58,046 bases of DNA from Myxococcales bacterium (GCA_045802855.1 JBJMQD010000036.1:1-58046); one strand, 5' to 3'; shown: positions 9,687 through 30,506, numbered from the stretch's first letter. A program made the numbers and translations. Notes: generated by a model from the letters alone, not told the origin.

Positions 9687-11357
<1,671 letters not shown>

Positions 11358-11399: not shown

Positions 11400-11427
11400 A
11401 ATGTAGACAGGCGCGGCGGGCTGTCAA
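11400..11427 (-). promoter_or_regulatory. Sigma70-like promoter candidate for groEL (TTGACA-16 nt-TACATT)
   Basis: On the minus strand, TTGACA (11427-11422) is separated by 16 nt from TACATT (11405-11400). This lies about 40 nt upstream of the groEL ATG. Motif match only. Confidence 0.4.
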
Positions 11428-11530
11428 GCGTCGCGTTTCAGAACCCGCGCCGCTGCCGGGTGAACAGCGCTTGTCAGCGCACGTCCATTGTTCTACGGGA
11501 CCCCGCACCTGTCCCCTCCAAGGAGACCGC

Positions 11531-12657: not shown

Positions 12658-12684
12658 TGTTTCGCGCGTGGTAGCTTCCCCGGC

Positions 12685-15294: not shown

Positions 15295-15379
15295 CCTGCG
15301 AACTTGCGAGCGTCGAGGCCCTTGAAGTCTCCGTACGGTGCGGTAGGGTCCTCAGCCCCCGAACCGAAAGGCAGCAAAA

Positions 15380-16309
15380 ATGGAATTCACTGGGCGCGTC
15401 CGGGAAATCCTCGGCTGGTATCAATCCGACAATCCGGGAACGAAGACGAACATCGCACGGCTCTTGAACCACGGGCGTCTCGCCGGCAGCGGCCGGCTCG
15501 TCATCTTGCCCGTCGATCAGGGGTTCGAGCACGGGCCCGCGCGCTCGTTCGCGCCCAACCCGGCCGGCTACGACCCCGAGTACCACGCGCAGCTCGCGAT
15601 CGACGCCGGGTGCAACGCCTACGCGGCGCCCCTCGGGTTTCTCGAGGCCGTGGCGGGAAAGCTCAACGGGCAGATCCCGCTGATCCTCAAGTTGAACAAC
15701 AGCGACACGCTCTCGAAGGGCCACCCGCCCTGCTCCGCAATCACCGGGTCCGTGAAGGACGCGGTACGGCTCGGCTGCGTCGCGATCGGGTTCACGATCT
15801 ATCCCGGCTCGTCGGCGCGGAACACGATGTACCAGGATCTGCGCGAGCTCATCGAGGAGGCGAAGGACCACGGCCTCGCCGCGGTGGTGTGGAGCTATCC
15901 GCGCGGCGAGGGAATTACCGACAAGAAGGGCGAGACGGCGGTCGACGTCGCGGGTTACGCCGCCCACATCGCTTGCGAGCTGGGCGCGCACGTCGTCAAG
16001 GTGAAGCCTCCCGGCGAGTTCATCTACCAGCCCGAGAACCAGAAGGTCTTCGAGAAGTACAACATCCCCATCAAGACGATGGCGGATCGCGTGCGCCACG
16101 TCGTGCAGAGCTGTTTCAACGGAAAGCGCATCGTCATCTTCTCGGGCGGCGAGGCGAAGGGGACTGACGAGCTCATGCAGGAGATCCGCGGCCTGCGCGA
16201 TGGCGGCGCCTTCGGCTCGATCATGGGCCGCAACGCCTTCCAGCGCCCGCACGACGAGGCCGTGAAGCTCCTCCGCGACGTGATGGACGTATTCGCCGGT
16301 AAAAGCTAG
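15380..16309 (+). CDS. Class I fructose-bisphosphate aldolase (DhnA/FbaB-type, DeoC/LacD superfamily)
   Basis: LVILPVDQGFEHGP, PLILKLNNS and KVKPP (Schiff-base Lys region), 309 aa. Confidence 0.8.
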   Translation: MEFTGRVREILGWYQSDNPGTKTNIARLLNHGRLAGSGRLVILPVDQGFEHGPARSFAPNPAGYDPEYHAQLAIDAGCNAYAAPLGFLEAVAGKLNGQIPLILKLNNSDTLSKGHPPCSAITGSVKDAVRLGCVAIGFTIYPGSSARNTMYQDLRELIEEAKDHGLAAVVWSYPRGEGITDKKGETAVDVAGYAAHIACELGAHVVKVKPPGEFIYQPENQKVFEKYNIPIKTMADRVRHVVQSCFNGKRIVIFSGGEAKGTDELMQEIRGLRDGGAFGSIMGRNAFQRPHDEAVKLLRDVMDVFAGKS

Positions 16310-17109
16310 GGCGAATCGGGCTCCGGCGGCGGGCGGGCCTCCGCCCACTGCGCGCGCGTCGGCCGGAGCGTGACGTCGATCTGTTGCCCGACCGACGCGG
16401 AGACCTCGGCGCTGCAGGGCAGCGTGTCGCAGGAGAGCTTCGCGTTCGTGACCGGCCCCGGCGCCCCCCGCGGCAGCTCCGGGCGGACGAGGCCTATGCG
16501 GCAGCGAGCGCCGTGCGGAATCCAGAGCGTCGCGCGCCCGTCGAGTACACCGGCGCGCGCCTCCCAGCTTTCGCCGCCCGCGCAGACCGCCCGCACCGCG
16601 GCGGCGGCCCGTATGCCTCGTTCGGGACGGACGACCTCCACCAGGGCGCGCCCCGGACGCTCGAACGTCGCGACCCAGGTAGCCGGCTTTCTCGCGATCA
16701 CCGTCGCGTACCCGCGCTGCACGTCGGCGAAGTACCGCGCCGGAGGCTGGACGTCGCACCGCCATGCGCCCTTCGCGAGGCCAGGCCACTTCGCCTCTCC
16801 GAAGACGTCGCTCAGGCCCGCGAACTCCTTCCCGTCCGGTCCGGTGCATCTGACCCGCGCATCGATGACTGGATTACGCGCGTCGTCCACCACCTGGACC
16901 ACGAGCGGCCCCGGATTCTGGACGACGAGCCACAGGATCACCGCGATGAGCGCGAAGACCACCGCGACGACCGCACCCTCGAGCCACCCGGGGACGCGGC
17001 TCGCGAACCGCGGCTCGAATGTGCCCAGCGACCCGGCGGCATCTCCGTATGCTCTGGTCCGTGGCCTACGGGCGTCGCGAGCGGAGCCCGCTCGTCCGAT
17101 TCCGATCAC
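16306..17109 (-). CDS. Membrane-anchored hypothetical protein (N-terminal TM helix, Cys-containing beta-rich ectodomain)
   Basis: GTG 17109 overlaps the queD stop as GTGA. The TM segment is GAVVAVVFALIAVILWLVV. The remainder is beta-rich with 6 Cys. It was trimmed from a 655-aa track ORF. Confidence 0.6.
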   Translation of the reverse strand: MIGIGRAGSARDARRPRTRAYGDAAGSLGTFEPRFASRVPGWLEGAVVAVVFALIAVILWLVVQNPGPLVVQVVDDARNPVIDARVRCTGPDGKEFAGLSDVFGEAKWPGLAKGAWRCDVQPPARYFADVQRGYATVIARKPATWVATFERPGRALVEVVRPERGIRAAAAVRAVCAGGESWEARAGVLDGRATLWIPHGARCRIGLVRPELPRGAPGPVTNAKLSCDTLPCSAEVSASVGQQIDVTLRPTRAQWAEARPPPEPDSP

Positions 17110-17486
17110 GGCACGTACTCGGCGCGGTTGTTCTCGGTCTCGAAGACCTCCACGCGGCAGATGCGGACCCGGTCGTCGTCCAGCTCGCGAGCAAGCTCCT
17201 CGCAGAAGAACCGGGCCAGCTCTTCCGCGGTGGGGTTGCGCCCCCCCTCCTGAAACGGCTCGATCTCGTTGATGTTGCCGTGATCGAAGCGCGCCGCCGC
17301 CGCGACTGCCGTCTTCTTCAGACGGGCGAAGTCGAGGACGTAGCTCGTGCGATCGAGCCGCGTCGCCTCGGCGTGCACCACCAGCCGGTAGTTGTGCCCG
17401 TGCAGGTTCTCGCAGCGGTCCTCGGAGAGGCGCACCTGGTGCGCCGCGCAGAACCACAGCTGCTTGCTCACGCGGTAGACGCCCAC
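17106..17486 (-). CDS. queD: 6-carboxy-5,6,7,8-tetrahydropterin synthase
   Basis: 126 aa, with CAAHQ...HGHNY Zn/catalytic motifs and DFARLK. Confidence 0.85.
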   Translation of the reverse strand: MGVYRVSKQLWFCAAHQVRLSEDRCENLHGHNYRLVVHAEATRLDRTSYVLDFARLKKTAVAAAARFDHGNINEIEPFQEGGRNPTAEELARFFCEELARELDDDRVRICRVEVFETENNRAEYVP

Positions 17487-17510
17487 CCGCGTGTTTGTAA
17501 CACGGTGGCC

Positions 17511-18194
17511 CTATGCTGCCTCGTGCAGCTCGCGCAGGAATGACCAGCGCACGAGGACCTGCTTCCCCTCGACCTCGAGGAGTCCGCGCCGGGTGAACTC
17601 GCTCAGCGCCCTGGAAACTGTCTCTCTGCTGGTTCCGACCAGGCCGGCGATCTCCTGCTGCGTCGGGCGCTCGCGGATGAGGATGCCTCCGTCCACCTGC
17701 TCTCCCTGCTTGAGCGCGAGCTCGCGGACGACGCGGGCCACACGCGCGTAGACGTCGAGGAGCGCGAGGTTGCCGATCACCTCGTCGGCATGGCGGAGGC
17801 GGCGGGACATCTCGGCCAGGATGGCGAGAGCGGTGGACGGGTTCGCGAGGAGGTGCTGGTGGAAGGCGTCCCGGTCGAGCGTGAGGAGCTGGGTCTCGGC
17901 CACCGCGACGACGTTGGCGGAGCGGGGCTGCCGATCGAAGAGCGACATCTCGCCGAAGAAGTCGCCCGCCTTGAGCATGCTGAGGATGATCTCCCGGCCG
18001 GTCTGGCCGTAGAGCACGACCTTCACCTTGCCGGAGGCGATCACGTACATCGAGTCGCCCGCCTCCTCGGCGCTGACGATCACGGTGCCGGCCTCGACGG
18101 TGCGGGGACGCATCCGGGCGCCCAGATCGGCCAGGACGGGAGGCTCGAGCTCGCGGAAGATCGCGACCTTTTGCAAGAGGACCGTAGGTTCCAC
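17511..18194 (-). CDS. Crp/Fnr-family transcriptional regulator (cNMP-binding + HTH)
   Basis: FGEMSLFDRQPRSANV is the cNMP-binding signature, and the C-terminal HTH is QQEIAGLVGTSRETVSRAL. The start is placed at GTG 18194, which has GGAGGA 6 nt upstream. Confidence 0.85.
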   Translation of the reverse strand: MEPTVLLQKVAIFRELEPPVLADLGARMRPRTVEAGTVIVSAEEAGDSMYVIASGKVKVVLYGQTGREIILSMLKAGDFFGEMSLFDRQPRSANVVAVAETQLLTLDRDAFHQHLLANPSTALAILAEMSRRLRHADEVIGNLALLDVYARVARVVRELALKQGEQVDGGILIRERPTQQEIAGLVGTSRETVSRALSEFTRRGLLEVEGKQVLVRWSFLRELHEAA

Positions 18195-18251
18195 GCGGCT
18201 TCCTCCGAAACGAGCAGTCTGACACTGCACCTGCTACCCAGACAAGCACAC

Positions 18252-18280
18252 TTGACCGCCAAATACGCGACACCTTATTT
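18252..18280 (+). promoter_or_regulatory. Sigma70-like promoter candidate for thiSGE (TTGACC-17 nt-TTATTT), possibly leaderless
   Basis: TTGACC (18252-18257) is separated by 17 nt from TTATTT (18275-18280). The -10 element ends 7 nt before the thiS ATG, and no SD is present. Confidence 0.4.
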
Positions 18281-18287
18281 CGAGTCG

Positions 18288-18494
18288 ATGTCGATGCGCG
18301 CCCAGGTCAACGGCGACCCCGTCGAGCTGCCCGAAGGTCTATCCGTCGCGGATCTGCTGCGCCACCTCGGGGTACGCGCCGAGCGCGTGGCAGTGGAAAG
18401 GAATGGCCGCGTGGTAAGGCGCGCCCGCCACGTCGAGGAGAAGCTCGCCGAGGGAGATGTCCTCGAGATCGTGACTTTCGTCGGCGGCGGCTGA
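18288..18494 (+). CDS. thiS: Sulfur carrier protein ThiS
   Basis: 68 aa ending in ...VTFVGGG (C-terminal Gly-Gly), located directly upstream of thiG. Confidence 0.85.
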   Translation: MSMRAQVNGDPVELPEGLSVADLLRHLGVRAERVAVERNGRVVRRARHVEEKLAEGDVLEIVTFVGGG

Positions 18495-18529
18495 CCGGAG
18501 TGCCGCACCGGGGATAGTATCCCGCGCCG

Positions 18530-19318
18530 ATGCACACCGACGACGCGTTCGACCTCGGAGGCCGTTCCTTCCACTCTCGTCTCGTGGTCGGGACCGGCAA
18601 GTACCGCGACTTCCCCACCATGCAGAAGGCGATCCTCGCTTCCGGCGCGGAGATGGTCACCGTCGCGGTGCGCAGGCTCGACCTGCAGGCCCAGGGCGAG
18701 GCATCGCTCCTGCACTGGATCCCGCGGGAGCTGACGCTCCTGCCCAACACCGCGGGGTGCTACACGGCGGACGAGGCCATCCGCACGTTGCGGCTCGCCC
18801 GCGAGCTGCAGATCGGCGGCGAGAAGCCGCTCGTGAAGCTCGAGGTGCTCGCCGACCAGAAGACGCTCCTCCCCGACGGCGAGGAAACGTTGCGGGCGGC
18901 GAAGCAGCTCGTCGCCGAAGGATTCACCGTCCTCCCCTACTGCAGCGACGATCCCGTGCTCTGCAGGAAGCTCGAGGACGCGGGCTGCGCGGCGGTGATG
19001 CCGCTCGGCGCACCCATCGGCAGCGGCCTCGGCCTGCGCAATCCCTACAACCTCCAGATGATCCTGGACCACGCGAAGGTGCCGGTGATCGTCGACGCCG
19101 GCGTGGGCACCGCGAGCGACTGCGCGGTCTGCATGGAGATGGGAGTCGCCGGTCTCCTCGTCAACACCGCGATCAGCGGCGCGCAGGATCCGGTGGCGAT
19201 GGCGACGGCGATGAAGCTCGCCACCGAAGCGGGCCGGCTCGCCTTCCGGGCGGGCAGGATCCCGCGCAAGCTCTACGGCAGCGCTTCGAGCCCGCTCGCG
19301 GGCGTCGTCGGAAAGTGA
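18530..19318 (+). CDS. thiG: Thiazole synthase
   Basis: [16 protein letters not shown]...LLPD and [11 protein letters not shown] motifs, 262 aa. Confidence 0.93.
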
Positions 19319-19923
19319 TCCGGCTGTATCTCGTCACCGATCGCCGCCTCGTTTCCGATCTCCCCTCCGCGGTCCGGGCGGCCCTCTCGGGCATTCCGCC
19401 CGGCACCGCCGCGGTCCAGCTCCGGGAGAAGGATCTTCCCGCCGCGCGTCTGCTCGATCTCGCGCGGCAGCTCGTTCCCATCTGCAGGGCCGCCTCCGCT
19501 CCGCTCCTGGTGAACGACAGGGCGGACGTGGCCCTCGCGGCGGGCGCGGACGGCGTCCATCTGCCGTCGCAGGGGATTCCGGTCGCGCAGGCCCGCTCGC
19601 TCCTGGGCCGGGGAAAGCTCGTCGGGGCGAGCTGCCACACGCCGGCGGAGATCGCGGATGCCCACGCGGCGGACGCCGATTTCGCGCTCTTCGGGCCCGT
19701 CTGGGAGTCGCCGGGGAAGACCGCCCAGGGACTCGCGGCGCTGAAGGGCGCTGTTCGCGCGTCTCCCCTGCCCGTTCTCGCCATCGGCGGGGTCACTCCC
19801 GAGACGGCGAGGCTGGCGATCGACGCCGGAGCAGCGGGAGTCGCTTGCATCCGGGCGGTCCTGGGGGCTCTCGATCCGGCCGCCGCCGCCCGGGACCTTC
19901 ATCTGGCGATGACGACGGACTAG
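19315..19923 (+). CDS. thiE: Thiamine-phosphate synthase
   Basis: GTG 19315 overlaps the thiG stop as GTGA. It carries [20 protein letters not shown] and AIGGV motifs. Confidence 0.85.
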
Positions 19924-20813
19924 CGCTTCGCGAGATTGGGGCGCTCCGCGAGAGCCTGGAGGAGCTTCGCCACCGCCTCGTCCGGGGTCTGCGCGTCCAT
20001 CACGTGCTGCTTGTAGAGGTTCCGTCCGCCGACCATCTCGGCCGCCCCGCCCGTCTCCGGCAGCGCCACCACGGGCTTTCCGTCGCGAAGGAGAAGCCCG
20101 ATCTCGCTCAGCGTCCCCCCGCCGCCGCCCACGACGATCGCGCCGTCTACGGCCATCGCCACCAGCGCCGCCTGGGCCTGCCCGACTCCCGTCGGAATGG
20201 GCAGGTCGATCCAGGCATTTGCCTCGTGGCGTGCGGGACCCGGCAGGATTCCGACCACGATCCCTTCGCCCTCCGCCTCCCGGTAGCCGCGAGCGGCGCC
20301 TTCCATGCATCCGCCGAGGCCACCGCAGACGAGGTGCGCGCCCGCGCGAGCGAGAGCTGCCCCTACCTCCCTGGCGGCCTCGTCGGTGCGGGGATCCTCG
20401 AGACCTCCGCCGATCACCGCCAGCACCAGCTTCTGCCGGACGGGCGACAGAGCGCGCTTGGGCGGAAGCATGCGGGAGCGTGCATCCGCGAACGTCTCCT
20501 CGGTCTCGTGGCGCAGCGCAATGGCGTCGAGGAGGAGGTCCTCCGCGAGCGGTTCGTCGGCGCATTCGACGCGCTTTTCCAGGTCGCGGGCCATCTCCCC
20601 GATCTCGGCGAACCCGAAAGTGCCCGCCGAGCCGGCGAGCTTGTGGAGCGCGCCCCGGAGCGCGTCTTTCGAGCCTGCGCCTCCTTGGCGGGCGGAGGAG
20701 ATGGCGGCCGACAGCTTCGCGAGCCGCTCGTTCGCACCAGCCAGATAGTGCTCGAGCAATTCGCGGTCCTCCGCTACCAGGTCCGCGGTATCGCGCTTTT
20801 CGTCGAATGCCAT
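19920..20813 (-). CDS. HPt (histidine phosphotransfer) domain fused to a LOG/TIGR00725-family (SLOG) Rossmann domain
   Basis: The N-terminal four-helix HPt signature is LHKLAGSAGTFGF. The C-terminal half carries GGLGGCMEGAARG and GGGGGTLSEI (GGxGT-x2-E), typical of LOG/lysine-decarboxylase-like proteins. ATG 20813 lies 10 nt after the kinase stop. Confidence 0.75.
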   Translation of the reverse strand: MAFDEKRDTADLVAEDRELLEHYLAGANERLAKLSAAISSARQGGAGSKDALRGALHKLAGSAGTFGFAEIGEMARDLEKRVECADEPLAEDLLLDAIALRHETEETFADARSRMLPPKRALSPVRQKLVLAVIGGGLEDPRTDEAAREVGAALARAGAHLVCGGLGGCMEGAARGYREAEGEGIVVGILPGPARHEANAWIDLPIPTGVGQAQAALVAMAVDGAIVVGGGGGTLSEIGLLLRDGKPVVALPETGGAAEMVGGRNLYKQHVMDAQTPDEAVAKLLQALAERPNLAKR

Positions 20814-20823
20814 CCCGGAAATG

Positions 20824-22542
20824 CTAGGCCTCGGATCGTTCGACCGGGAGGGTGAAGAAGAACGTCGCGCCCTTGCCGGGCTCGCTTTCCACCCCGATCT
20901 CGCCCCCGTGGGCAAGGACCAGCGCCCGGCAGATGGCAAGGCCGAGGCCGGTGCCTTCCTGCTCCCGGCGGGCCCGGTCGGACTGCGCGAAACGGGTGAA
21001 GAGCTTCGCGCGGAAATCTTCGGGGATCCCGGGCCCCCGATCGCGCACCTCGAAGCGGACGACGTTGCCCTTCTGCTCGACGAGGAGATCGACCGACCCC
21101 GCCTTCGGAGAGAACTTCAGCGCGTTCGAGAGGAGATTCGTGAGCACCTGGACGATGCGATCGCCGTCGGCGCGCACCGGCGGCAGCCCGTCCGCAAGGG
21201 CGCTCTTGACCGTGACCCCTACCTTCTTGGCGAACCCGTCGATGCCCTGGACGGCCTCGGCGCAGAGTGCCGCCACGTCGGTCGGGGCAGGATCGAGCTC
21301 GAGCCGTCCCGCTTCGATCTTGCTCACGTCGAGGATGTCGTTCACCAGCCGTACCAGACGGTCGGCGTTCCGCTTCGTCACCTCGACGAGCTCGCGGGTT
21401 TCCTCGTCGAGCGAGGAGCCGTCGAGGACCAGCGCCATCGAGCCTTTGATGCTGGTGAGCGGCGTGCGCAGCTCGTGGGACACCGTCGAGATGAACTCGG
21501 ACTTCATCCGATCCACCTCGTGGGCGTTCGTCACGTCGTCGAAGACGACCATCGAGCCGACCACCTCGCCTCCGGCGCCGAGGGCGGCGGTGGAGTAGCG
21601 GCGGAAGATGCGCGGCTTCGGTTCGCCGGGCAGGTTCACCGAGATCTCACGGTCCTCGTCGTCAGTCTGGCCGAGCGATAGTTCTCCTGACGCGACCAGC
21701 GGGCGGAGGACATCTTCGAGGAGCCCGATGGGCGCTCCCACCACTTCGCGGTCGCCGAGCGCGAACAGGTTCCGGAAGGAGCGGTTCACGACCGCCGCGC
21801 GACCGCCGCGGTCGACGAGCACGATCCCGCTGCGGGACGCCTCGACGAGCGCTTCGAGCTGGCGGGACACCGCCTGCGACCGCGCGCTCTGCTCGCGCAC
21901 GTCCTCGATCAATTTGGCGCCGGCGATCGCGGTCGCCGCGTGACGGGCGAGGATGCGCAAGGCCTCGAGCACCTCGTCGCGGAGCGGCTCGCGGCTCCAC
22001 ATCGCCACCACGCCGAGGAGCCGTCCTTCATGGACCAGAGGGTGCCCCGAGAACGACCGCAGCCGCTCGATGCGGGCCCAGTCGGGATCGGCGAGCCCCG
22101 GCTCCGAACCGAGGTCGTCGGTCGCGACCATTCCGCCGTAGGCGGCGACGCGGCCGACGGAGAAGTCGCCGATCGGCACCCGTGCGAGCACCCGATCGAG
22201 CGGCCCGAGCCCGCCGTGCTCGACGAGGTGCAAGCACTGCTTCCGCGAGTGGCAGCGGTGCGCCATCTCGCAGGAGCCGCAGCGATCCGGCTCTCCCACG
22301 AGCCACACCCGCGCGCAGGCGGCACCGAAGCTCCGGGTGAGCGCGTCGGTCACGGCGGCGAGGATGCGCTCGCGCTGGAAGGCGCTGGCGACGCTCTCGG
22401 TAACCTGGACCGCGGCGCGGAGCGCGCGGACCGTCGCCTGCAGCCGCGCCTTCTCGAGCTCGAGATCCTCGCTGGTCGGTTCCGCCGGAAGGATGGCGAG
22501 CCGCCTGCGGACGGAATCCTTGTCGACCGCGCGTGCGCTCAC
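20824..22542 (-). CDS. Soluble sensor histidine kinase (coiled coil-GAF-PAS-HisKA-HATPase_c)
   Basis: The H-box is FISTVSHELRTPLTSI, the N-box is LTNLLSNALKFS, and G-boxes are DRGPGIP and GTGLGLAI. There is no TM segment. A GAF-like region with a Cys-rich insert precedes a PAS-like region. GTG 22542 overlaps the REC stop as GTGA. Confidence 0.9.
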   Translation of the reverse strand: MSARAVDKDSVRRRLAILPAEPTSEDLELEKARLQATVRALRAAVQVTESVASAFQRERILAAVTDALTRSFGAACARVWLVGEPDRCGSCEMAHRCHSRKQCLHLVEHGGLGPLDRVLARVPIGDFSVGRVAAYGGMVATDDLGSEPGLADPDWARIERLRSFSGHPLVHEGRLLGVVAMWSREPLRDEVLEALRILARHAATAIAGAKLIEDVREQSARSQAVSRQLEALVEASRSGIVLVDRGGRAAVVNRSFRNLFALGDREVVGAPIGLLEDVLRPLVASGELSLGQTDDEDREISVNLPGEPKPRIFRRYSTAALGAGGEVVGSMVVFDDVTNAHEVDRMKSEFISTVSHELRTPLTSIKGSMALVLDGSSLDEETRELVEVTKRNADRLVRLVNDILDVSKIEAGRLELDPAPTDVAALCAEAVQGIDGFAKKVGVTVKSALADGLPPVRADGDRIVQVLTNLLSNALKFSPKAGSVDLLVEQKGNVVRFEVRDRGPGIPEDFRAKLFTRFAQSDRARREQEGTGLGLAICRALVLAHGGEIGVESEPGKGATFFFTLPVERSEA

Positions 22543-22910
22543 GACGCCCCAAGGACGCCGTTCACCTCGGCGAGCAGTTCCTTCGGCTCGAACGGCTTGG
22601 TCAGGTAGCGCGTGGCTCCCAGCCGGAGCCCCTCGTCCACCTCGTCCTTCTGCGCCTTGGCGGTGAGGAACACGAACGGAGTCGCGGCGCGCGCGTCGCG
22701 CTTGCGCACCTCGGCGAGCGTCTCGATGCCGCTCATCTCCGGCATCATCCGATCGCAGAGGATGAGGTCGCAGGCCGCGCCCGTGTCGAGATAGGCGAGC
22801 GCCGCCCTGCCGCCCTCAGCCAGAGCGACCTCGTGGTTCCCGCGCTTCAAGGCGAGGCGGGCCACGAAGCGGATGTCGGAGTCGTCGTCGATTACCAGGA
22901 TGCGGGCCAT
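22539..22910 (-). CDS. Single-domain (CheY-like) response regulator
   Basis: 123 aa, with ILVIDDD, LILCDRMMPEMSG, LTA and KPF motifs. Confidence 0.9.
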   Translation of the reverse strand: MARILVIDDDSDIRFVARLALKRGNHEVALAEGGRAALAYLDTGAACDLILCDRMMPEMSGIETLAEVRKRDARAATPFVFLTAKAQKDEVDEGLRLGATRYLTKPFEPKELLAEVNGVLGAS

Positions 22911-22919
22911 GTCGGTCCT

Positions 22920-24065
22920 TCAGACAGCGAGCAAATCGAGCAGGGTCTTGCGATGGAGGGGTTTCTTCAAGAAGCCGTCCGCGCCGCAGCGGCGCGCCTC
23001 GGAACGGAGATCTTCGTCGTCCGCGGCGCTGACGACGTACATCCGCGCTGCGCAGTTGCGCACGTCCGCGGAGAGGCGGCGCAAGAGGTCGATCCCGTTC
23101 ATGCCGGGCATGAAGATGTCGACGAGGACGAGATCGTAGGAGCCGCCCGGGGGCAGCGCCTGCCGCAGCTTCGAGGAGTCCTGCACGGCGTCAACCACCG
23201 CGCCCGCAGAGGCGAGCACCGACCGGCAATACCCGAGCACGTCGTCGTCGTCGTCGACCACCAGGACGTGGGGGCGCTTCGCTGGCGCCGGCGTGGCGAC
23301 CGAGAGGAGATTGATCCCGCTCGCGGGGTTCTTCGCCGGACCGGGCAGCGGAACGGGCTCGTCGCGGCGCTTCGACAGGCCGACCAGCGCGAGGAGGTTC
23401 ACGCGGTGGATGGGCTTCGTCAGCCACCCGTCCGCACCCATCTGCGCTGCCTTGCGGACCATGTCGGGGTCGTGCGCGGCGGTCATCATGCAGATGGGGA
23501 GATCCGCTCCGTAGTGCTGCCGGAGCAGGTAGCAAGCCGCGAGGCCGTCGATCTCCGGCATGCGAACGTCGAGGAGGACGAGGTCGTACTCGCCTCCCGG
23601 CGGATGGCGCAGGAGGTCCTTGGGATCCGAGACGCAGGTCACCGAGCATCCCGCGCCCTCGAGGATCCGCCGGATGAGGGCGAGGATGTCGGCGTCGTCG
23701 TCCACCACGAGGACGCGCTTGCGCGGCGCCTCCTTCGCCGGGGCGGCGCCGAGAAGGGGGCGCAGGTCGCGCTCGAGCGAGACGTGATCGAGCGGCCTGC
23801 GCAGACAGGCGTCCGCGCCCCGTCCGGGAGCGTCGCCGACCATGGCGACGCGGACCGCGGGAAGCCGGTCCTTCGTCCTTCGAGCCGCGTCGGCTCCGCC
23901 TGCCTCGTCGAGAACGACCACGTCCGGCGAGAGCGCGGCGAGGGCGTCGAGACCTTTGCGGTGGTCGAGCGAGCGCGACGCGATCCCCTGCGTGGAGAGG
24001 AAGTAGCGCAGGAAGGCCTGTTCGGCCGGATGCTCGTTCAGGAGTACGACGTTCGGATGGCGCAC
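22920..24065 (-). CDS. Triple receiver-domain protein (one degenerate + two canonical REC domains, no output domain)
   Basis: Two canonical REC domains are present (VLVVDDDADIL...LVLLDVRMPEIDG...TKP and VLVVDDDDDVL...LVLVDIFMPGMNG...KKP). They are preceded by a REC-like domain lacking the acidic pair (VVLLNEHP). The start is placed at GTG 24065, which has GAGG upstream. The longer track ORF overlaps recO. Confidence 0.75.
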   Translation of the reverse strand: MRHPNVVLLNEHPAEQAFLRYFLSTQGIASRSLDHRKGLDALAALSPDVVVLDEAGGADAARRTKDRLPAVRVAMVGDAPGRGADACLRRPLDHVSLERDLRPLLGAAPAKEAPRKRVLVVDDDADILALIRRILEGAGCSVTCVSDPKDLLRHPPGGEYDLVLLDVRMPEIDGLAACYLLRQHYGADLPICMMTAAHDPDMVRKAAQMGADGWLTKPIHRVNLLALVGLSKRRDEPVPLPGPAKNPASGINLLSVATPAPAKRPHVLVVDDDDDVLGYCRSVLASAGAVVDAVQDSSKLRQALPPGGSYDLVLVDIFMPGMNGIDLLRRLSADVRNCAARMYVVSAADDEDLRSEARRCGADGFLKKPLHRKTLLDLLAV

Positions 24066-24141
24066 GATGACCTCGGGATGGCCCCGGACTGATCGGCCCG
24101 CCACCGGATCCCTTGAGCACCGATCGGAGCTGGGGGCCGGA

Positions 24142-24936
24142 TCAGGGCGGAGCGCCCACCTGCGCCGAGAAACGCATGCTGCGCGGGCTGCGACCGAGAT
24201 GATGTGCGACGAACGCGGAGAGCGCCCGCGCCGCCTCACCCGCGGCCTCCTCGAAAGCGCGGGGGTCGGCAGGCCTGCCGGAGCCGTCGGCGGAAAGGGG
24301 CGCCTGCGCGCCGGCCATCCCACGCCGCTGCAGTTGCACGAGCGCGGCGCGGGCCCCACCGGTGAGCGCGAGGGCAGAGGGGTGCGCGCAGCGCGCACAG
24401 CAAAGGCCGCCCGCGTCCGGATCGAAGGCCGCGCGACCCGGCGCGACGCGCGTGCCGCAGCGGGCGCATCCGGAAAGCTCGGGCGCGAGTCCCGCGGCAT
24501 CGAGCGCGCCGAGCTCGAACGCGCGGAGGAGCGCGCTGGTCGGTTCCGAGGCGCAGAGCCGGGCCAGGAACTCCTCGAGGAGAGCGAAGAGACGATCCGC
24601 GGGTTGCGACGGGCGCGTCAGGTCGTGGAGCAGCTCCGCCGCGTAGCCGGCGTGGGCGATGCGGTGCAGGTGCTCGCGCAGGGCCGGATGCGCCTCGACG
24701 ACCGAGGCCTCGCGCAGCATCCACAGCTCCTGGCCAGAGCGTTCGTGGAGGAGGACCTCGAGGCGCTGGAACGGCTCCAGCGCCCCGGCGAAGCGCTTGC
24801 CCGCGGGACGCGCGCCCCGGGCGAAGGCGGCTACCCGGCCGCGTCCCCGCACGAGGAGGTGCACGACGAGGTCGCGCTCGCCGTACGGGTGCGTCCGGAG
24901 CACGAAGGCCTCTAGCCGTTCGGCGCGGGTGTCCAC
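24142..24936 (-). CDS. recO: DNA repair protein RecO
   Basis: The N-terminal OB-fold pattern is AFVLRTHPYGERDLVVHLL, and the zinc-finger-like motif is CARCG...CCARC. 264 aa. Confidence 0.85.
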   Translation of the reverse strand: MDTRAERLEAFVLRTHPYGERDLVVHLLVRGRGRVAAFARGARPAGKRFAGALEPFQRLEVLLHERSGQELWMLREASVVEAHPALREHLHRIAHAGYAAELLHDLTRPSQPADRLFALLEEFLARLCASEPTSALLRAFELGALDAAGLAPELSGCARCGTRVAPGRAAFDPDAGGLCCARCAHPSALALTGGARAALVQLQRRGMAGAQAPLSADGSGRPADPRAFEEAAGEAARALSAFVAHHLGRSPRSMRFSAQVGAPP

Positions 24937-24967
24937 GGCGCGAAGGTAGCGCGACGGGCGAAATCCG

Positions 24968-26170
24968 TCAGGCGCCCTTCAGGTCCTTGAGGAGGCGGTC
25001 GCACTCCGCCCGGACGTTGTCCTCGCGGGCGTCGGTGGTCTTCGCGCAGCGCTCGAACTCGTCGCGAGCGTCCTTCGCCCGGCCCTGCCGCACCAGGGTC
25101 TTCGCGTACTGGAGATGAGCGTCCGCGGCATCGGGACAGCTCGCCGCGTACTTCCCGAACGCATCGACGGCCGATGGTAGATCGTTCCGCTCGGAGTAGA
25201 TGGTGCCGAGCTGCCTCCATCCCAGGCAGTACTTCGGATTCAGCGCGAGGGCGGCCTTGATCCGCTGCACGCCCTTCTGTGCCTGCCCGGACTTGTAGAG
25301 AGCCCAGCCGAGGTTCGTCTCGGCGACCACGCGCTCGCGGTACAGATCGTTCGAGAGCGCAAGCTCGAATTCCTTGACCGCCTCCGTGTACCGGGCCTGC
25401 GTGAGGTAGAAGGCGCCCAGGTTGTTGTGGGCCTCCGCGAAATCCTTGTCGAGCTCGATCGCCTTCTTGAGCTCGGCCTCGGCTTCCTGCGGCTTCCCTA
25501 TCGAATAGGCGTAGAGAAGGCCCATCGCGTTGTGCACCTGGGGCACGGAATCGTCTTCCTCGTTCGCCTGCCGGTACTCCGTCAGGGCTCCCTGCGGGTC
25601 CCCATTCTGGAGGAGCGAAGTCCCCAGGTCGTAGTGGATCTCCGCTGCGTGGCGGCGCTGCTCGGCGCTCGGGCCGCTGCAGGCCGACAGAAGGAGCGCG
25701 AGCGGGAGCACGAAAGCCCCGAAGAGCCGCGCGATCGCTGCCAGCGAATCCTGCTGCCGCGGGATCGAGGCCTTCGACACCAACCGCTGCTGCGTCGGCG
25801 CGCGGAAGGCCGGCAGCCTCGATAGCAGCTCGTCGCGGCGCTCGGAGGAGAGGGAGGCCCACCCCGCCGAGTCGAGGATGAACCCCATGCTTTCGGCGAA
25901 GTCGAGCGCTTCCTCGACCTTCTGCGGAAGTCCTCCGTCGTCGACCACCTGGTCGGGCGTGTAGAGGACGTTGTCGCCGCTCTCCAGGAAGGTGAGCGCG
26001 ATGACGACCTCGTACCCGTGTCCCACGTGCGAGGCGACCACCGCCGCCTGCGCGGCCTGCGCCGACTTCCCGGGGACCTGCACGAGAGGCTGGTTGGTCG
26101 ACTCGTACAGGCCGACGATCGAGTCGCGGGCGACGGAGACGTGGGTCCGGGTGGGGTCCTCGTTGAACAT
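24968..26170 (-). CDS. TPR-repeat protein (PilW/PilF/Tgl-like TPR module) with ~130-aa N-terminal domain and internal lipobox-like signal anchor
   Basis: The C-terminal 230 aa are TPR repeats (AHNNLGAFYLTQARYTEAVKEFELAL...). The hydrophobic segment FGAFVLPLALLLSAC ends in a lipobox-like LSAC at residue 164. ATG 26170 overlaps the folE2 stop by 1 nt. Confidence 0.7.
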   Translation of the reverse strand: MFNEDPTRTHVSVARDSIVGLYESTNQPLVQVPGKSAQAAQAAVVASHVGHGYEVVIALTFLESGDNVLYTPDQVVDDGGLPQKVEEALDFAESMGFILDSAGWASLSSERRDELLSRLPAFRAPTQQRLVSKASIPRQQDSLAAIARLFGAFVLPLALLLSACSGPSAEQRRHAAEIHYDLGTSLLQNGDPQGALTEYRQANEEDDSVPQVHNAMGLLYAYSIGKPQEAEAELKKAIELDKDFAEAHNNLGAFYLTQARYTEAVKEFELALSNDLYRERVVAETNLGWALYKSGQAQKGVQRIKAALALNPKYCLGWRQLGTIYSERNDLPSAVDAFGKYAASCPDAADAHLQYAKTLVRQGRAKDARDEFERCAKTTDAREDNVRAECDRLLKDLKGA

Positions 26171-27123
26171 CAGCTCTTTCCTATCCGATGGCGCGGCCTT
26201 CTAGCCTCCGTCACTGGCGACGCCCCCAAAGCGGGCTCCTCGGTTGGATGCTGCGGCCTGCGGCCTCCGCGACTGGCGACGCCGGCAAAGCCCGGCTCCT
26301 CCTGCGGCGGATACGAGAACCGGGCGTAGGCGCTGTGGGCGTGGATGGACTCGAAGCTCTCCGCCGACACCTCGAACCGGGGGAACGCCGGCTGCGCCTT
26401 GAGGCGGGTACCCACCTCCCGCACCAGATCCTCGACGAACCGCGGCCGCGAGTAGGCCCGCTCCGTGACGTACTTCTCGTCGGGCCGCTTGAGCACGGCG
26501 TAGAGGTCGCAAGACGCGCACGATTCCACGAGGGAGATGAGGTCCTCGATCCAGAAGAACTTCGCGAACCAGACCTTCACCCGGATGACGCTGCGCTGGT
26601 TGTGCGCCGAGCGCTCGCTGATCGCCTTGCTGCAAGGGCAGAGGCTGGTGACCGGGACCTCCACGCCGACCCACAGGTCCGCCTTCTCCCGGGCGGCACT
26701 CATGGTCCGGACGCTGGCGCCGAACGTGCACGCATAGTCGACGAGCCCCGCGGCGCCCGTCACGGGGGCGCGCTTCTCGATGAAGTACGGAAACCGCACC
26801 GTCACGTGAGCGGCGGACGCATCGTGATCGCGCCTGAGCTCGCTGCACAGCTCGCGGAACTTGCGGATGTCGATCTCGCGCCGGTGGCGGTTGAGCAACT
26901 CGACGAAGCGGCTCATGTGCGCGCCCTTGCGCTTGTGCGGCAGCGACACGCTCATGTCGATTTCGGCGACGGTGTGCTGGATGCCCTGCTCCCGATCGCG
27001 GACGCTGATCGGATAGCGCAGCCCGGTGACGCCGGCGCGCTCCAGATCGAGCTTGCGCGGGTCCTCCTCGCTGTGCACGTCGCGCAGGGCGACGACATTC
27101 GGTAATGGTCGTTGCGCCTTCAA
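26170..27123 (-). CDS. folE2: GTP cyclohydrolase FolE2 (type IB) with ~45-aa repeat-containing C-terminal tail
   Basis: Carries KGAHMSRF, SLCPCSK, HNQRS and ESIHAHSAYA motifs. The start (TTG 27123) overlaps the PhzF-like stop as TTGA. Confidence 0.85.
   Translation of the reverse strand: MKAQRPLPNVVALRDVHSEEDPRKLDLERAGVTGLRYPISVRDREQGIQHTVAEIDMSVSLPHKRKGAHMSRFVELLNRHRREIDIRKFRELCSELRRDHDASAAHVTVRFPYFIEKRAPVTGAAGLVDYACTFGASVRTMSAAREKADLWVGVEVPVTSLCPCSKAISERSAHNQRSVIRVKVWFAKFFWIEDLISLVESCASCDLYAVLKRPDEKYVTERAYSRPRFVEDLVREVGTRLKAQPAFPRFEVSAESFESIHAHSAYARFSYPPQEEPGFAGVASRGGRRPQHPTEEPALGASPVTEARRPRHRIGKS
26193..26302. repeat. Imperfect tandem direct repeat, 2 x ~60 nt (~80% identity)
   Basis: Unit A runs 26193-26243 and unit B 26253-26302, giving a period of 60 nt. 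The shared core is gcggcct.c..gcctccg..actggcgacgcc..caaagc..ggctcctc. The repeat encodes duplicated 20-aa peptides in the FolE2 tail. Confidence 0.8.
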
Positions 27124-28025
27124 CGCACCTCCAACTCGCCGCGGACGATGACGGTTGCCGACCCGCCGACATAGGCGCGGACGGGATACGGCGGCTCGTC
27201 CGGTCGCAGGGCGATCTCAATCTTGCCCGGCCTTCCCACCTCGTCGCCCTGCAAGAAGTGGAGCCCACGAGGAAGCGCGCCGGGCAGGAGCTCCTGCAAG
27301 AGCAGCGCTAGATGCCCGCAGGCGCTTCCGGTCACCGGATCCTCGTCGATCCCATAGAAGGGAAAGAATGCGCGCAGGGCGGCGTCGATCCCAGGCTTGG
27401 GGGCGAGAGTGAAAGGAACGAATCCGGCCACCCCCAGCCGCTTGCCGATTGCGTCGAGCGGGCGCGGGTCCGGTCGCATCCGCGCGAGGGCCTCCCGGTC
27501 GCGGACGCAGAAGTAGAGGTTCCCCTCCTCGCTCTCCGCCTTGTGCGGCGGGATGCGCGGATCGAGCGCCTCCGGGACGACGTTCATGGCGGCGAGGGCG
27601 TCGGCTGGAACGGGCTGCGGCCGGAACCGCGTCGGCGGTGTCTCGAACAGGATCCGCAGGACTCCCTCGTGGCGGGAAAGCTCGACGCGCTGGACTCCGG
27701 CCTTGCACCCGAAACGGAGGTGGACGACGCCCTCGGGACCGACGGCGATCCGTTTCGCCTCGTCTACCAGCACGTGCAGCGTGGCGAGCGTCGCATGTCC
27801 GCAGAATCGCACTTCGGACAAAGGCGTGAACCAGCGCAGGTGGAAGTCGGTTCCCGCATTGCGCCGCGAGGGGACGGGGAACGCCGTTTCGCTGTGCTTC
27901 AACTCCGCGGCGATGCGCTGCATCTCTTCGGCGGAAAGGGTGGCGCCGTCGAGGACGACACCGGCGGGGTTCCCCCCGAAAGGCCGGTCGGAAAAGGCGT
28001 CCACGACGTAGCAAGGCAGTTTCAT
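27120..28025 (-). CDS. PhzF-family isomerase-like protein
   Basis: VDAFSDRPFGGNPAGVV, SETAF and RWFTPLSEVRFCGHATLA are hallmark PhzF/YddE motifs. ATG 28025 overlaps the queE stop as ATGA. Confidence 0.85.
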   Translation of the reverse strand: MKLPCYVVDAFSDRPFGGNPAGVVLDGATLSAEEMQRIAAELKHSETAFPVPSRRNAGTDFHLRWFTPLSEVRFCGHATLATLHVLVDEAKRIAVGPEGVVHLRFGCKAGVQRVELSRHEGVLRILFETPPTRFRPQPVPADALAAMNVVPEALDPRIPPHKAESEEGNLYFCVRDREALARMRPDPRPLDAIGKRLGVAGFVPFTLAPKPGIDAALRAFFPFYGIDEDPVTGSACGHLALLLQELLPGALPRGLHFLQGDEVGRPGKIEIALRPDEPPYPVRAYVGGSATVIVRGELEVR

Positions 28026-28654
28026 ACGCCCCTCGCCTCGGCTCCCCAGATGATCTTGTGCATCTGCAATTGCAAGCGCGCGGGGCGCTCGGAGGCGAGG
28101 AGCCAGCGCGCCAGGTCCTTCGGAGCGACCTCGCCGAAGCTCGGCGAGAAGAGGACCGGCACGCGGCCCCAGAGGCCGAGCCGATCGATGACCGACACCG
28201 CCCAGCGGAAGTCCGCCTCGCCGCACACGACCACCTTGAGCTCGTCTCCTTCCCCGAGCGCCTCGAGCTCGCGGAAGTCGCGGTGCTGCTCGCCGGATCC
28301 CGGGGTCTTGAGGTCGACGATCTTCTTCACCCCGCGCGGGATCTGGTCGAGCGGCCTTTGCCCGTGCGTCTCCAGGGAGACCTCGTATCCGCGCTCGAGC
28401 AGCTTCCGGCAGAGATCGGGGAGCTCCCGCTGCAGCGTAGGCTCGCCCCCCGTGAGGCAGACGAAGCGGGCCGGATGCCGCTCGACCTGGGCGAGGATCT
28501 CTGCCAACGGCAGGTCCTTCCCGCCATGGAACGCGTACTCGGTGTCGCAGTACCCGCAGCGCAGGTCACACCCGGTGAAGCGGACGAACACGCACGGCTT
28601 CCCAGCGTGGGTCGATTCGCCCTGGATGCTGAAGAAGATCTCGGTGACCCTCAC
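28022..28654 (-). CDS. queE: 7-carboxy-7-deazaguanine synthase (radical SAM)
   Basis: EIFFSIQGE, the radical-SAM cluster motif CDLRCGYCDT, and LTGGEP. 210 aa. Confidence 0.88.
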   Translation of the reverse strand: MRVTEIFFSIQGESTHAGKPCVFVRFTGCDLRCGYCDTEYAFHGGKDLPLAEILAQVERHPARFVCLTGGEPTLQRELPDLCRKLLERGYEVSLETHGQRPLDQIPRGVKKIVDLKTPGSGEQHRDFRELEALGEGDELKVVVCGEADFRWAVSVIDRLGLWGRVPVLFSPSFGEVAPKDLARWLLASERPARLQLQMHKIIWGAEARGV

Positions 28655-28704
28655 GCGGGCGATCTACTCGGTGGAACGACCCTGCGCAACGCCGACAAGG
28701 CGGG

Positions 28705-30489
28705 TCAACCCGCGGAGTCGGGCCAGGGAGCGCCGAGCCAGCCGGTTCGCAGCTCGATGGCGGAAGCCTCCGCATGGGCGCTCGGTACGATGGTCGCGGT
28801 ATCGCGCGGGGCGGCCGCGAGACGGGCGGTCAGCTCCGCGAGCTCGTCGAGGCGGAATACCGACAAGCGGACCTCCTGCCCGGGCGGGCCGCGGGAAAGG
28901 CGCCTCTGCATCTCGCTGCGGAACCCGTCCAGGGCGACGATCTCGTCTCCGGCCGCGAGGCCGGCCTCCTGCGCTGGAGACCCTTCCATGACGCCCGCCA
29001 CTTCCAGCGACTGCCCCTTGTCGCGGAGCGCGGCGCCGAGATACGCGCGGGGAGCCGTATCCGGGGGCTCCGGCAGCCGCGCAGCCGCGCCGCCCTTGTC
29101 TTCCGGACCCGTGGAAGCGCGGAAGACCGCGGAAAGGCCGACCCCCGCGAGCGCTCCCTCGACGTCGAGCTCTTCCGTCCCCCGGATCGCCCGATCGAAC
29201 CAGGGGCGCAGATCCTCTCCCGAGATCTCGGTCGCCGCCTTCTCCACGCCGTCCTCGGGTAGGCCCTGCCCGCGGCCGTGTCGCTCGAAGAGAAGCCGCA
29301 TCACGTCGTCGAGCGACCGGGACCCCGAAGTTCGCCGCCGGATCTCCAGATCGAGCAGGAAGCCGACCACGCTGCCCTTCAGGTAATACGAGACGGTGGT
29401 GTTCGCGGTGCTCTCGTCCGGCCGGTAGTGCTTGATCCAGGAATCGTAGGACGCGAGAGCGAGCGGCGTCCGCGCCCTCCCCGGGGTCCGCCAGAGCTGC
29501 GTGATCCGCTCTCCCCAGATGGCGACGAACCGCTCCGGCGATACCAGCCCGGCGCGGCGGAGCGCGACCACCTCGTAGAAGCTCGTCAGCCCCTCCATCG
29601 CCCAGAGGAGCCTCGTGTAGTTCTCGCGCGTCCAGTCGTAGGGCGTGAACGCCTGGGGGCGGATGCGCTTCACGTTCCAGAGATGGAAGTACTCGTGCGC
29701 GACGAGCTGGAGGAAGTCCTCGTACGCGGCCTTCTGCACGAAGACAAAACGCGGGACGAGCAGCGCGCAGCTGCGCCTGTGCTCGAGCCCTCCCCGCCCC
29801 TTGTCGTTCAGATGCAGGAGGAAGAGATAGCGGTCCCGGAACGGAAGCTCTCCGTAGATCGCGGCCAGCGCCTCGACGATCCGCGTCATGTCCGGGATCG
29901 CCCGGCGAGCGTCGAAGTCGCCGCGGCCCCACACGACGAGCTCGTGCTGCACTCCCTGGACCGTGAAGGAGTGGGCGGAGTGGGAAGAGTCCGGACCCAT
30001 CTCGAACGGGCTGTCCGCGAGCTCGTCGTAGTCGCCGGCGTGGAAGGCGCCTTCCCGCCAGGGCAACGCGACCCAGGTCCGCCAGCCGGCTGGCAGCTCC
30101 GTCTTCACCGTGCAGGGCTGTCCTTCACGTCCGACGAAGTACGCGCACGCCGCCGCCGGATTCAGGAACGCGTGCGTCGGATCGACGTGGTTCGTGCGGA
30201 CGGTCAGCTCGAAGCACCCGAGCCGGTACGAGACGCGGACCCGGCGCGAACCTACGCAGGAGATCCGCCAGGTGTGCTTGTCGATCTTCTCGACTGCGAG
30301 GGCGCGCCCGGATTCGTCGGAGGCGGAAAGCCCGTCGACGTGGCGCTGGTGCTCGCGGATGAGATAGCTGCCGGGAGTCCAGACCGGCAGCCGGACGTCG
30401 AGCGATGCCTCGCCCCGCGTCTCGCACTCGAGAGCAATCTCAGCCCTGCGCGCCTCGGGCTGCGAAACCTTCAGCGTGTACGCGATCAT
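28705..30489 (-). CDS. M61-family metallopeptidase (glycyl aminopeptidase-like) with C-terminal PDZ domain
   Basis: HEYFHLWNVKR is the HExxH zinc motif. The C-terminal PDZ-like segment is GSPAQEAGLAAGDEIVALDG. 594 aa. Confidence 0.8.
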   Translation of the reverse strand: MIAYTLKVSQPEARRAEIALECETRGEASLDVRLPVWTPGSYLIREHQRHVDGLSASDESGRALAVEKIDKHTWRISCVGSRRVRVSYRLGCFELTVRTNHVDPTHAFLNPAAACAYFVGREGQPCTVKTELPAGWRTWVALPWREGAFHAGDYDELADSPFEMGPDSSHSAHSFTVQGVQHELVVWGRGDFDARRAIPDMTRIVEALAAIYGELPFRDRYLFLLHLNDKGRGGLEHRRSCALLVPRFVFVQKAAYEDFLQLVAHEYFHLWNVKRIRPQAFTPYDWTRENYTRLLWAMEGLTSFYEVVALRRAGLVSPERFVAIWGERITQLWRTPGRARTPLALASYDSWIKHYRPDESTANTTVSYYLKGSVVGFLLDLEIRRRTSGSRSLDDVMRLLFERHGRGQGLPEDGVEKAATEISGEDLRPWFDRAIRGTEELDVEGALAGVGLSAVFRASTGPEDKGGAAARLPEPPDTAPRAYLGAALRDKGQSLEVAGVMEGSPAQEAGLAAGDEIVALDGFRSEMQRRLSRGPPGQEVRLSVFRLDELAELTARLAAAPRDTATIVPSAHAEASAIELRTGWLGAPWPDSAG

Positions 30490-30506
30490 GTCGCGCGGAC
30501 TGTAAT

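Follow-up and report, generated by a model that had tools for sequence, protein, structure and literature searches.

A conserved phosphorelay operon of soil Myxococcota with a rare Hpt-SLOG fusion

Introduction

In the sporulation relay of Bacillus subtilis, phosphoryl groups pass from KinA to Spo0F, from Spo0F to Spo0B and finally from Spo0B to Spo0A. Histidine phosphotransfer (Hpt) proteins usually either serve as shuttles without further domains or belong to hybrid kinases. In Myxococcus, FrzZ consists of tandem CheY-like receivers without an enzymatic or DNA-binding output; such proteins probably work through contacts with other proteins or as phosphate sinks. The present study concerns a four-gene operon on the minus strand of a 58,046-nucleotide stretch of DNA from a Myxococcales bacterium (GCA_045802855.1, JBJMQD010000036.1:1-58046; this whole stretch is called the window below). 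In the order of transcription, its genes encode a protein with a pseudo-receiver and two receiver (REC) domains, here called the multi-REC protein (gene 1), a single-domain receiver (gene 2), a soluble histidine kinase (gene 3) and an Hpt domain fused to a SLOG domain (gene 4). The operon is a genuine conserved phosphorelay with a rare fusion of Hpt to a SLOG cluster 4 (SLOG4) domain.

A preliminary description of the locus, made from the window alone, took it for a His-Asp-His-Asp relay without a conventional output domain, in which a LOG-like domain in gene 4 was the only enzyme-like module able to receive the signal. The relay would then be read out by small-molecule chemistry, a proposal that is weakened rather than strengthened by the evidence given here. 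We think it fairly probable that the operon forms a His-Asp-His-Asp relay with the multi-REC protein as its main terminal target, the SLOG domain being a side branch and not the sole read-out.

Results and Discussion

A complete relay conserved in related genomes

A complete multistep relay is encoded as separate polypeptides, as had been proposed, and all catalytic and acceptor residues are intact: H356 of the kinase, D53 of the single receiver, H57 of the Hpt domain, and D166 and D316 in the second and third domains (REC2 and REC3) of gene 1. The four minus-strand open reading frames (ORFs) and their spacings match the earlier coordinates exactly (Table 1). Gaps of 9 nt and 10 nt separate gene 1 from gene 2 and gene 3 from gene 4, and the gene 2 stop overlaps the kinase start by 4 nt as GTGA. 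No output domain was found in the four proteins with Pfam and NCBIfam at E≤0.1 or with PADLOC at E≤0.01, so this part of the preliminary description stands. Specifically, DNA-binding, cyclic-di-GMP, CheB/CheR and sigma-54 outputs were looked for in Pfam and NCBIfam at E≤0.1 and none was present. Beyond TIGR00725, NCBIfam gave receiver- and kinase-level matches only.

Among 1.84 billion representatives, searched exhaustively with phmmer, there were 2,449 SLOG4-like relatives at E≤1e-3, and Hpt joined to SLOG4 occurs in about six 50%-identity clusters of these (P0024, P0243, P0245, P0246, P0248 and P0249). A 90%-clustered search gave about 46 clusters of full-length fusions with 67–98% identity, almost all metagenomic, and many standalone relatives of about 200 aa with 55–67% identity. 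Where a source is named, which is the case for a few fragments and standalone relatives, it is mostly "Myxococcales" or "Deltaproteobacteria". In all, 31 loci were gathered and then compared with tblastn and by extracting their motifs; a genome-contig scan with a single-protein query yielded L006 only, and a metagenome scan with an alignment yielded 16 loci.

The four genes occur in the same order, in the same slot between recO and thiE, in 17 further loci (L001, L006, L010, L011, L012, L017, L018, L020-L023 and L026-L028, with L002, L015 and L019 partial), whose Hpt-SLOG proteins are 38–79% identical to that of the window. Where the contig allows, the full order is recO, multi-REC, REC, kinase, Hpt-SLOG, thiE. 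Chance adjacency of the four genes is therefore excluded, and the operon that the preliminary description had drawn from one contig is found to be co-conserved in related genomes. It is vertically inherited in a soil Myxococcota lineage.

Natural deletions separate the Hpt and SLOG domains

The Hpt motif (LHKLAGSAGTFG) is conserved in every locus that retains the kinase; H-K-[LIV]-A-G-S is kept in all 18 loci, the window included, that have a kinase directly upstream. The kinase has been lost in two lineages. In one, comprising L025, L007 and L008/L009, a single deletion took REC2, the single receiver and the kinase, and leaves a 235-aa pseudoREC-REC3 protein. In the other, L003, all three genes upstream of Hpt-SLOG are gone. 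Among the four distinct kinase-less proteins the Hpt motif is degraded in three, being HELAGSAGDQ in L007 and having His replaced by Arg in L008 and in L003. Since the motif decays only in kinase-less loci, the Hpt domain works with this kinase and the relay is real. The relay components are co-inherited and, with decay of the Hpt motif and of REC3 confined to loci where the kinase is deleted, functionally interdependent.

The two halves of the fusion respond differently to loss of the kinase. Compared with the window protein, kinase-less proteins retain 49–56% identity in Hpt and 80–82% in SLOG. The ratio of nonsynonymous to synonymous substitution rates (dN/dS, Nei-Gojobori) of Hpt is 0.30–0.37 in kinase-less pairs versus 0.14–0.26 in kinase-bearing pairs, and the Hpt/SLOG dN ratio is 10–15 versus 1.6–4.9. 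The SLOG dN/dS is 0.03–0.10 in the kinase-less pairs (L003, L007, L008 and L025), with SLOG motifs identical throughout. In a neighbor-joining tree of the SLOG domain, rooted with standalone proteins, both kinase-less groups are nested among full operons, which indicates that the kinase losses are derived and independent. Strong purifying selection on SLOG after loss of the relay shows that this domain has a function of its own, and it behaves as an autonomous effector or carrier instead of a sensor dedicated to the relay.

The reverse situation also exists. L012 has a full operon in the recO-thiE slot, with a multi-REC protein 50% identical to that of the window, and keeps LHKIAGSAGTYG; its SLOG domain (11466-12419; P0248) has lost the GGLGGCM loop, carries the motif GGGGAVLAH and no longer receives the Pfam LDcluster4 call. 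Similarly, the Hpt His is intact and SLOG is decayed in L015 (149-1108; P0249), which has a kinase upstream, and in P0245. P0248, P0249 and P0245 have a deleted or altered GGLGG loop, and GGGGAVLAH or GGGAAALAE in place of GGGGGTLSE, leaving pseudo-SLOG domains. Because L012 and L015 keep the relay with destroyed SLOG loops, the relay has a read-out that is independent of ligand binding by SLOG. The claim that nothing but the LOG-like domain could receive the signal fails on these two loci, and a relay with a purely small-molecule read-out does not hold as it was stated. Coupling between Hpt and SLOG is possible, not obligatory; the fusion would join two modules each able to work alone.

The multi-REC protein as candidate terminal target

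Gene 1 had been described as a protein of three REC domains. Pfam places Response_reg at aa 118–228 and about 267–376 (180 bits in total), and REC2 and REC3 are canonical: D122-D124, D166 and K217 of the former and D271-D273, D316 and K368 of the latter are invariant in 61 sequences. In the single receiver, D8-D10, the phospho-acceptor D53, a Thr and K105 are invariant in six orthologues. The acidic pair, Asp, Thr/Ser and Lys of a receiver are thus present in the single receiver, REC2 and REC3, but not in the N-terminal domain of gene 1, where N-E-H (LLNEHP) replaces the acidic pair, Arg (LRRPL) replaces the conserved Lys, and Pfam makes no call. By residues and by Pfam the first of the three domains is a pseudo-receiver. 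The AlphaFold2 (AF2) model of gene 1 has three beta/alpha domains with an overall predicted local distance difference test (pLDDT) score of 81.8; the pseudo-receiver, modeled with 61 homologues, is a confident alternating beta/alpha fold with pLDDT 84–94. Its REC-like fold is assigned because of this model, similarity to REC2 in BLASTP being marginal.

In kinase-less loci, the pseudo-receiver is 86% identical to that of the nearest full orthologue, and REC3 falls to 76%; in the truncated 235-aa protein, MPGMDG of REC3 has decayed to AAGADG. The multi-REC protein is kept wherever the kinase is kept, which makes it the best candidate for a terminal target. We take it to be the likelier main target of the relay. 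The pseudo-receiver is a plausible protein-protein interaction surface, and would likely be the output surface of the protein.

The kinase and its possible input

The kinase consists of a coiled-coil, GAF (57–207), PAS (228–341), HisKA (346–412, with H356) and HATPase_c (459–568). Pfam scores are 53 bits for GAF, 24.1 for PAS_4 (above cutoff), 78 for HisKA and 116 for HATPase_c, with PAS_7 (25.9) and PAS (22.5) slightly under their own cutoffs. The H-box SHELRTPL around H356 and the N, G1 and G2 boxes NLLSNALKF, DRGPGIP and GTGLGLAI are invariant in six orthologues. The GAF domain contains a four-cysteine motif, C88-x2-C91-x5-C97-x5-C103, and all four Cys are invariant in the six orthologues at identities down to 66%. 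This motif is a candidate site for an Fe-S cluster, for a metal such as Zn, or for redox sensing. In CSK/Hik2 kinases, a GAF-bound [3Fe-4S] cluster underlies redox sensing (PMC6949291). Given this precedent and a soluble kinase with an invariant Cys motif, a redox or metal cue may be a reasonable guess for the input. The motif is a separate, testable lead toward a new redox or metal sensor.

The Hpt-SLOG protein

Both halves of gene 4 are recognized. The Hpt domain (PF01627) scores 41 bits versus a cutoff of 24.6, with the phospho-acceptor H57 in the canonical motif L-H-K-L-A-G-S-A-G-T-F/Y-G, and it also weakly matches CheA P1. The second domain scores 107.1 bits versus a cutoff of 26.3 for LDcluster4/SLOG cluster 4 (PF18306) and 101.8 bits for TIGR00725, just under the cutoff of 106.9. 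TIGR00730 was not reached (29.5 versus 96.35), nor was NF058542 (16.1 versus 300), and PF03641 gave no match. In the AF2 model (pLDDT 84.8), residues 14–115 form a helical bundle and residues 130–289 a Rossmann domain. By sequence, the nearest solved structures are the molybdenum cofactor (Moco) carriers of Rippkaea (6y01, E=4.8e-17) and Chlamydomonas (2iz5, E=1.8e-14), at 30–32% identity, followed by TM1055 (1rcu), TT1887 and then true LOGs. Foldseek on the model gives template modeling (TM) scores of 0.82–0.84 for 1rcu, 6y01 and 2iz5, the Moco carriers having TM 0.83–0.84 and root mean square deviations of 2.3–2.4 Å. LOGs, PpnN/YgdH, the TRPM2 SLOG domain and DprA come lower.

The glycine loops CGGLGGCM and GGGGGTLSE are retained together with E237. 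LOG enzymes depend for catalysis on an Arg as well as on the Glu of PGGxGTxxE, and CgLOGII loses its activity with the mutation Arg155Ala (PMC5379747). Compared with that motif, GGGGGTLSE keeps GxGTxxE and E237, with Gly in place of Pro. At the position of the LOG Arg, 15 residues before the motif, gene 4 has A213/Q214, with no Arg in either register. Of 111 diverse SLOG4 representatives, 109 have Arg at position 214, where the window protein has Gln. A LOG-type reaction is unlikely because the catalytic Arg is absent and the thresholds of the hidden Markov models (HMMs) are unmet. The fusion itself, proposed earlier as Hpt with a LOG-like domain, is confirmed, and its Rossmann domain is a bona fide member of SLOG cluster 4, not a LOG enzyme.

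Gln214 is common to the fusion clade and to the standalone Myxococcales relatives of about 200 aa (P0058-P0119), and the change from Arg to Gln defines a lineage-specific SLOG4 subfamily. Standalone proteins with L166/Q214/E237 are 63–67% identical to the fused domain and common in Myxococcales, in non-signaling contexts; the fused domain probably derives from them. As the glycine loops are intact and the Arg is absent, SLOG most likely binds a phosphorylated nucleotide- or pterin-like ligand, as far as its residues can tell, in preference to hydrolyzing one. Elsewhere SLOG4 is fused to AAA_33 kinases, PRTase, 2-thiouracil desulfurase, LigT, RsmB/F methyltransferase, GNAT, ferredoxin and others, partners that fit a nucleotide- or base-centered ligand.

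A proposed relay and the alternatives

In the relay that we favor, the cytoplasmic kinase would sense a redox, metal or ligand cue via the four-Cys GAF domain and PAS, and autophosphorylate on H356. The phosphoryl group would pass to D53 of the single receiver, from D53 to H57 of the Hpt domain, and end on D166 and/or D316 of the pseudoREC-REC-REC protein. Output would probably proceed through protein contacts of the conserved N-terminal pseudo-receiver. In a side branch, the phosphorylation state of H57 may modulate the effector or carrier activity of a SLOG oligomer, the most likely link between the two domains.

Several points weigh against this scheme. The order of phosphotransfer comes from domain logic alone, and a response regulator with a conventional output elsewhere in the genome could be the real terminal acceptor. 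The output role of the pseudo-receiver is conjectural, and the whole multi-REC gene is gone in L003. Kinase-less L025 still has an intact Hpt motif; the evidence from kinase loss amounts to two independent deletion events, and the dS values behind it are 0.5–0.9, partly saturated, in a genome of 69% GC. The inter-domain geometry of the AF2 model of Hpt-SLOG is not confident (predicted TM score 0.59), and so nothing structural supports cis-regulation between the two domains.

Alternatively, the gene 4 protein may be a bifunctional node, in which the phosphorylation state of H57 allosterically determines whether an oligomeric SLOG domain without catalytic activity binds or releases a phosphorylated nucleotide- or pterin-type ligand, or in which control runs from the ligand to H57. 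We hold this to be a tentative possibility. If true, a phosphotransfer protein would couple the relay directly to a small-molecule pool, and the multi-REC protein would be a parallel branch.

Another possible role for SLOG is to sense a ligand, as a second input by which phosphotransfer is gated at the Hpt step, so that the relay would integrate a metabolite signal there. SLOG sensors exist elsewhere, for instance ThsA for 3'cADPR and TRPM2 for ADPR, the latter being among the fold matches here, and the change of Arg to Gln is compatible with binding without catalysis. A domain that served as input only should, however, decay once the kinase and the Hpt His are lost, and the low SLOG dN/dS that persists after those losses makes this role rather unlikely.

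It is unlikely, too, that SLOG is an enzymatic output, with phosphorylation of H57 switching on nucleotide chemistry by a LOG-type phosphoribohydrolase or similar. The four proteins carry no other output domain, the phosphate-binding loops and E237 are retained, SLOG stays conserved after relay loss as an effector with its own function would, and SLOG4 is joined elsewhere to enzymes of nucleotides and RNA bases. Set against this, the Arg that 109 of 111 family representatives possess, and whose mutation kills LOG activity (PMC5379747), is missing; TIGR00730 and PF03641 thresholds are unmet; and L012 and L015, which retain the relay without a SLOG site, need another output.

Quite unlikely, in our estimate, is a SLOG domain that carries molybdenum cofactor, with a relay that senses redox state or O2 via the four-Cys GAF domain controlling storage or hand-over of this oxygen-labile compound. 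Among solved structures, those of the Rippkaea and Chlamydomonas carriers are closest in both sequence and fold, and carriers bind rather than catalyze, which is compatible with loss of the Arg. In the Rippkaea protein (RoMCP), the Moco docking residues are R42, N72, N87, R89, K118 and N119, of which R42, R89 and K118 shield the phosphate (PMC7470044). R42, R89 and K118 correspond here to L166, Q214 and R243, and N72, N87 and N119 to E197, Q212 and D244. Two of the three shielding charges of the docked model are therefore missing, since L166 and Q214 are uncharged and R243 alone is a conservative change, and the domain is not a convincing Moco carrier. The RoMCP authors themselves doubt a carrier role of low-identity homologues (PMC7470044), and the conserved ±8 kb neighborhood showed neither genes of Moco biosynthesis nor molybdoenzymes. 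Finally, a SLOG fold that is mainly an oligomerization scaffold presenting several Hpt domains, its ligand site irrelevant to signaling and the two functions simply encoded together, would suit the stable tetramers of the Moco carriers (PMC7470044) and the fusion lineages that retain the fold and lose the ligand loops, yet it is very unlikely, as those loops are invariant in 45 fusion proteins of the window clade and in standalone relatives, which places the ligand site under selection there.

Returning to the favored relay with the multi-REC protein as terminal target, the loci form a deletion series: a full relay, a kinase-less locus with intact Hpt, a decayed Hpt, a locus without signaling genes, and relays whose SLOG site is dead. 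This series already separates the functions of Hpt and SLOG and is a ready-made natural experiment.

Coordinates and neighborhood of the operon

Table 1. Positions of the operon genes, their domains and the flanking genes in the window
Feature	Extent and residues	Coordinates	Strand	Basis
Gene 1, pseudoREC-REC-REC protein	381 aa	22920..24065	-	Pfam (two Response_reg stretches); AF2
N-terminal pseudo-receiver	aa 1-108	23742..24065	-	Residue table, AF2 fold
REC2	aa 115-232; DD...D166...T195...K217	23370..23723	-	Pfam, alignment
REC3	aa 264-381; DD...D316...S/T...K368	22923..23276	-	Pfam, alignment
Gene 2, single-domain receiver	123 aa	22539..22910	-	Response_reg, 94.5 bits
Gene 3, soluble histidine kinase	572 aa	20824..22542	-	Pfam, NCBIfam
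GAF four-cysteine motif	Kinase aa 88-103	22234..22281	-	Alignment
Gene 4, Hpt-SLOG fusion protein	297 aa	19920..20813	-	Pfam, NCBIfam, AF2
Hpt domain	aa 14-115; H57 codon 20643-20645 (CAC)	20469..20774	-	Pfam, AF2
SLOG cluster 4 (PF18306) Rossmann domain	aa 127-290	19944..20435	-	Pfam, structure matches
recO, upstream flank, marker of conserved slot		24142..24936	-	37-76 nt before gene 1
thiE (TMP-TENI), downstream flank, convergent	Approximate start	19321..19923	+	Pfam in syntenic loci, tblastn

The start of gene 1 is uncertain. An NCBI protein from a metagenome-assembled genome (P0121), 99% identical, has 394 aa, 13 codons more than the gene listed here, which implies an alternative GTG start at 24104; orthologues have 376–378 aa. 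The stop of gene 4 overlaps that of the convergent thiE as CTAG. No promoter or terminator was found in a scan of 19700-25100 for signals of the E. coli type, from which those of a host with 69% GC differ. The GC content is about 69% across the whole window.

The flanks of the operon are strongly conserved in the window (about 17100-19923 and 24142-30500) and in L001, L003, L007 and L010-L012. On the recO side lie genes for an M61 peptidase, a 210-aa radical SAM protein, PhzF, a FolE2-type GTP cyclohydrolase and a TPR protein, and then recO; on the other side are thiE-thiG-thiS, a Crp-family regulator and PTPS/QueD. The FolE2, QueD and radical SAM genes resemble a 7-deazaguanine or pterin pathway, and any tie to the SLOG ligand is speculative.

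A conventional response regulator was sought in the window, and a single further REC protein was found (8435-9565, minus strand). It has 376 aa, with REC at aa 17–127 followed by about 250 aa without a Pfam match, and lies about 11 kb from the operon; no link between the two is evident. Long ORFs without a Pfam match at E≤0.001 occur at 4050-8744 and 9642-11534 on the plus strand and at 11474-12724 and 14852-16849 on the minus strand. Some of them overlap long ORFs on the opposite strand and may be high-GC artefacts, not genes.

PADLOC gave no defense-system model for the kinase, the single receiver or the Hpt-SLOG protein, its matches being confined to gene 1. An anti-phage reading of the operon, with a Thoeris ThsA/ThcA-like protein, was rejected: ThcA matched at E=0.029 with 14 bits versus a cutoff of 110, and the neighbors are housekeeping genes, not TIR or SIR2 partners.

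Variants of the architecture were seen in other loci. The divergent fusion P0246 is a singleton without close fused relatives and is again preceded by a REC gene. That gene (L014:1-372) overlaps the start of P0246 and has Gly at the position of the phospho-acceptor Asp (DLLTLGVRLPDMDG); its product may be another pseudo-receiver. In L013 (8001-11391), a trio of multi-REC, REC and kinase genes occurs without Hpt-SLOG in a different context, adjoining genes for two regulators, one of the sigma-54 and one of the HD-GYP type, and for a hybrid kinase. The trio's own kinase gene is divided between two frames, and there are transposase genes in the vicinity. A 107-aa ORF of L013 was checked as a separate Hpt and is not one. 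P0104 (359 aa, HATPase_c plus LDcluster4), which looks like a fusion of kinase and SLOG, was rejected as a real architecture, since a frameshift has joined the neighboring kinase and Hpt-SLOG genes into a chimera.

Comparison with known systems

An Hpt domain fused to a metabolite-binding SLOG domain is a rare architecture. No description of it was found in the literature searched, the scope of which did not extend to the SLOG comparative-genomics paper of Burroughs et al. 2015; in that literature TIGR00725 is unmentioned and PF18306 is mentioned in a single paper. The operon offers a way into SLOG cluster 4/TIGR00725, a large family of no known function.

The LOG cytokinin riboside 5'-monophosphate phosphoribohydrolases and PpnN (TIGR00730, PF03641) belong to the superfamily of the SLOG domain and have the same fold. 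Gene 4 retains their glycine-rich loop for the nucleotide phosphate and the Glu of their motif, but its catalytic Arg is absent and their HMM thresholds are unmet. The Moco carriers (CrMCP, 2iz5-2iz7; RoMCP, 6y01) share the seven-stranded Rossmann-like SLOG fold and a GxGTxxE-type loop. The domain described here differs from them by the loss of two of the three phosphate-shielding basic residues, an identity of about 30%, the fusion to Hpt and a context without Moco genes. The standalone SLOG4/TIGR00725 proteins of Myxococcales have the same L166/Q214/E237, but are about 200 aa long, lack Hpt and have no signaling neighbors.

The tandem receivers of gene 1 resemble FrzZ. The gene 1 protein adds a conserved pseudo-receiver, and would be fed via an Hpt domain, not by a CheA-type kinase. 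As a whole, the operon resembles the B. subtilis sporulation relay and similar split relays, where kinase, receiver, phosphotransferase and terminal receiver are separate, follow a His-Asp-His-Asp order and provide several possible points of control. Here, however, the phosphotransferase is a monomeric-type four-helix Hpt (PF01627) joined to SLOG instead of the dimeric Spo0B/ChpT type, the putative terminal protein combines two canonical receivers with a pseudo-receiver and has no DNA-binding domain, and all four genes stand in one operon.

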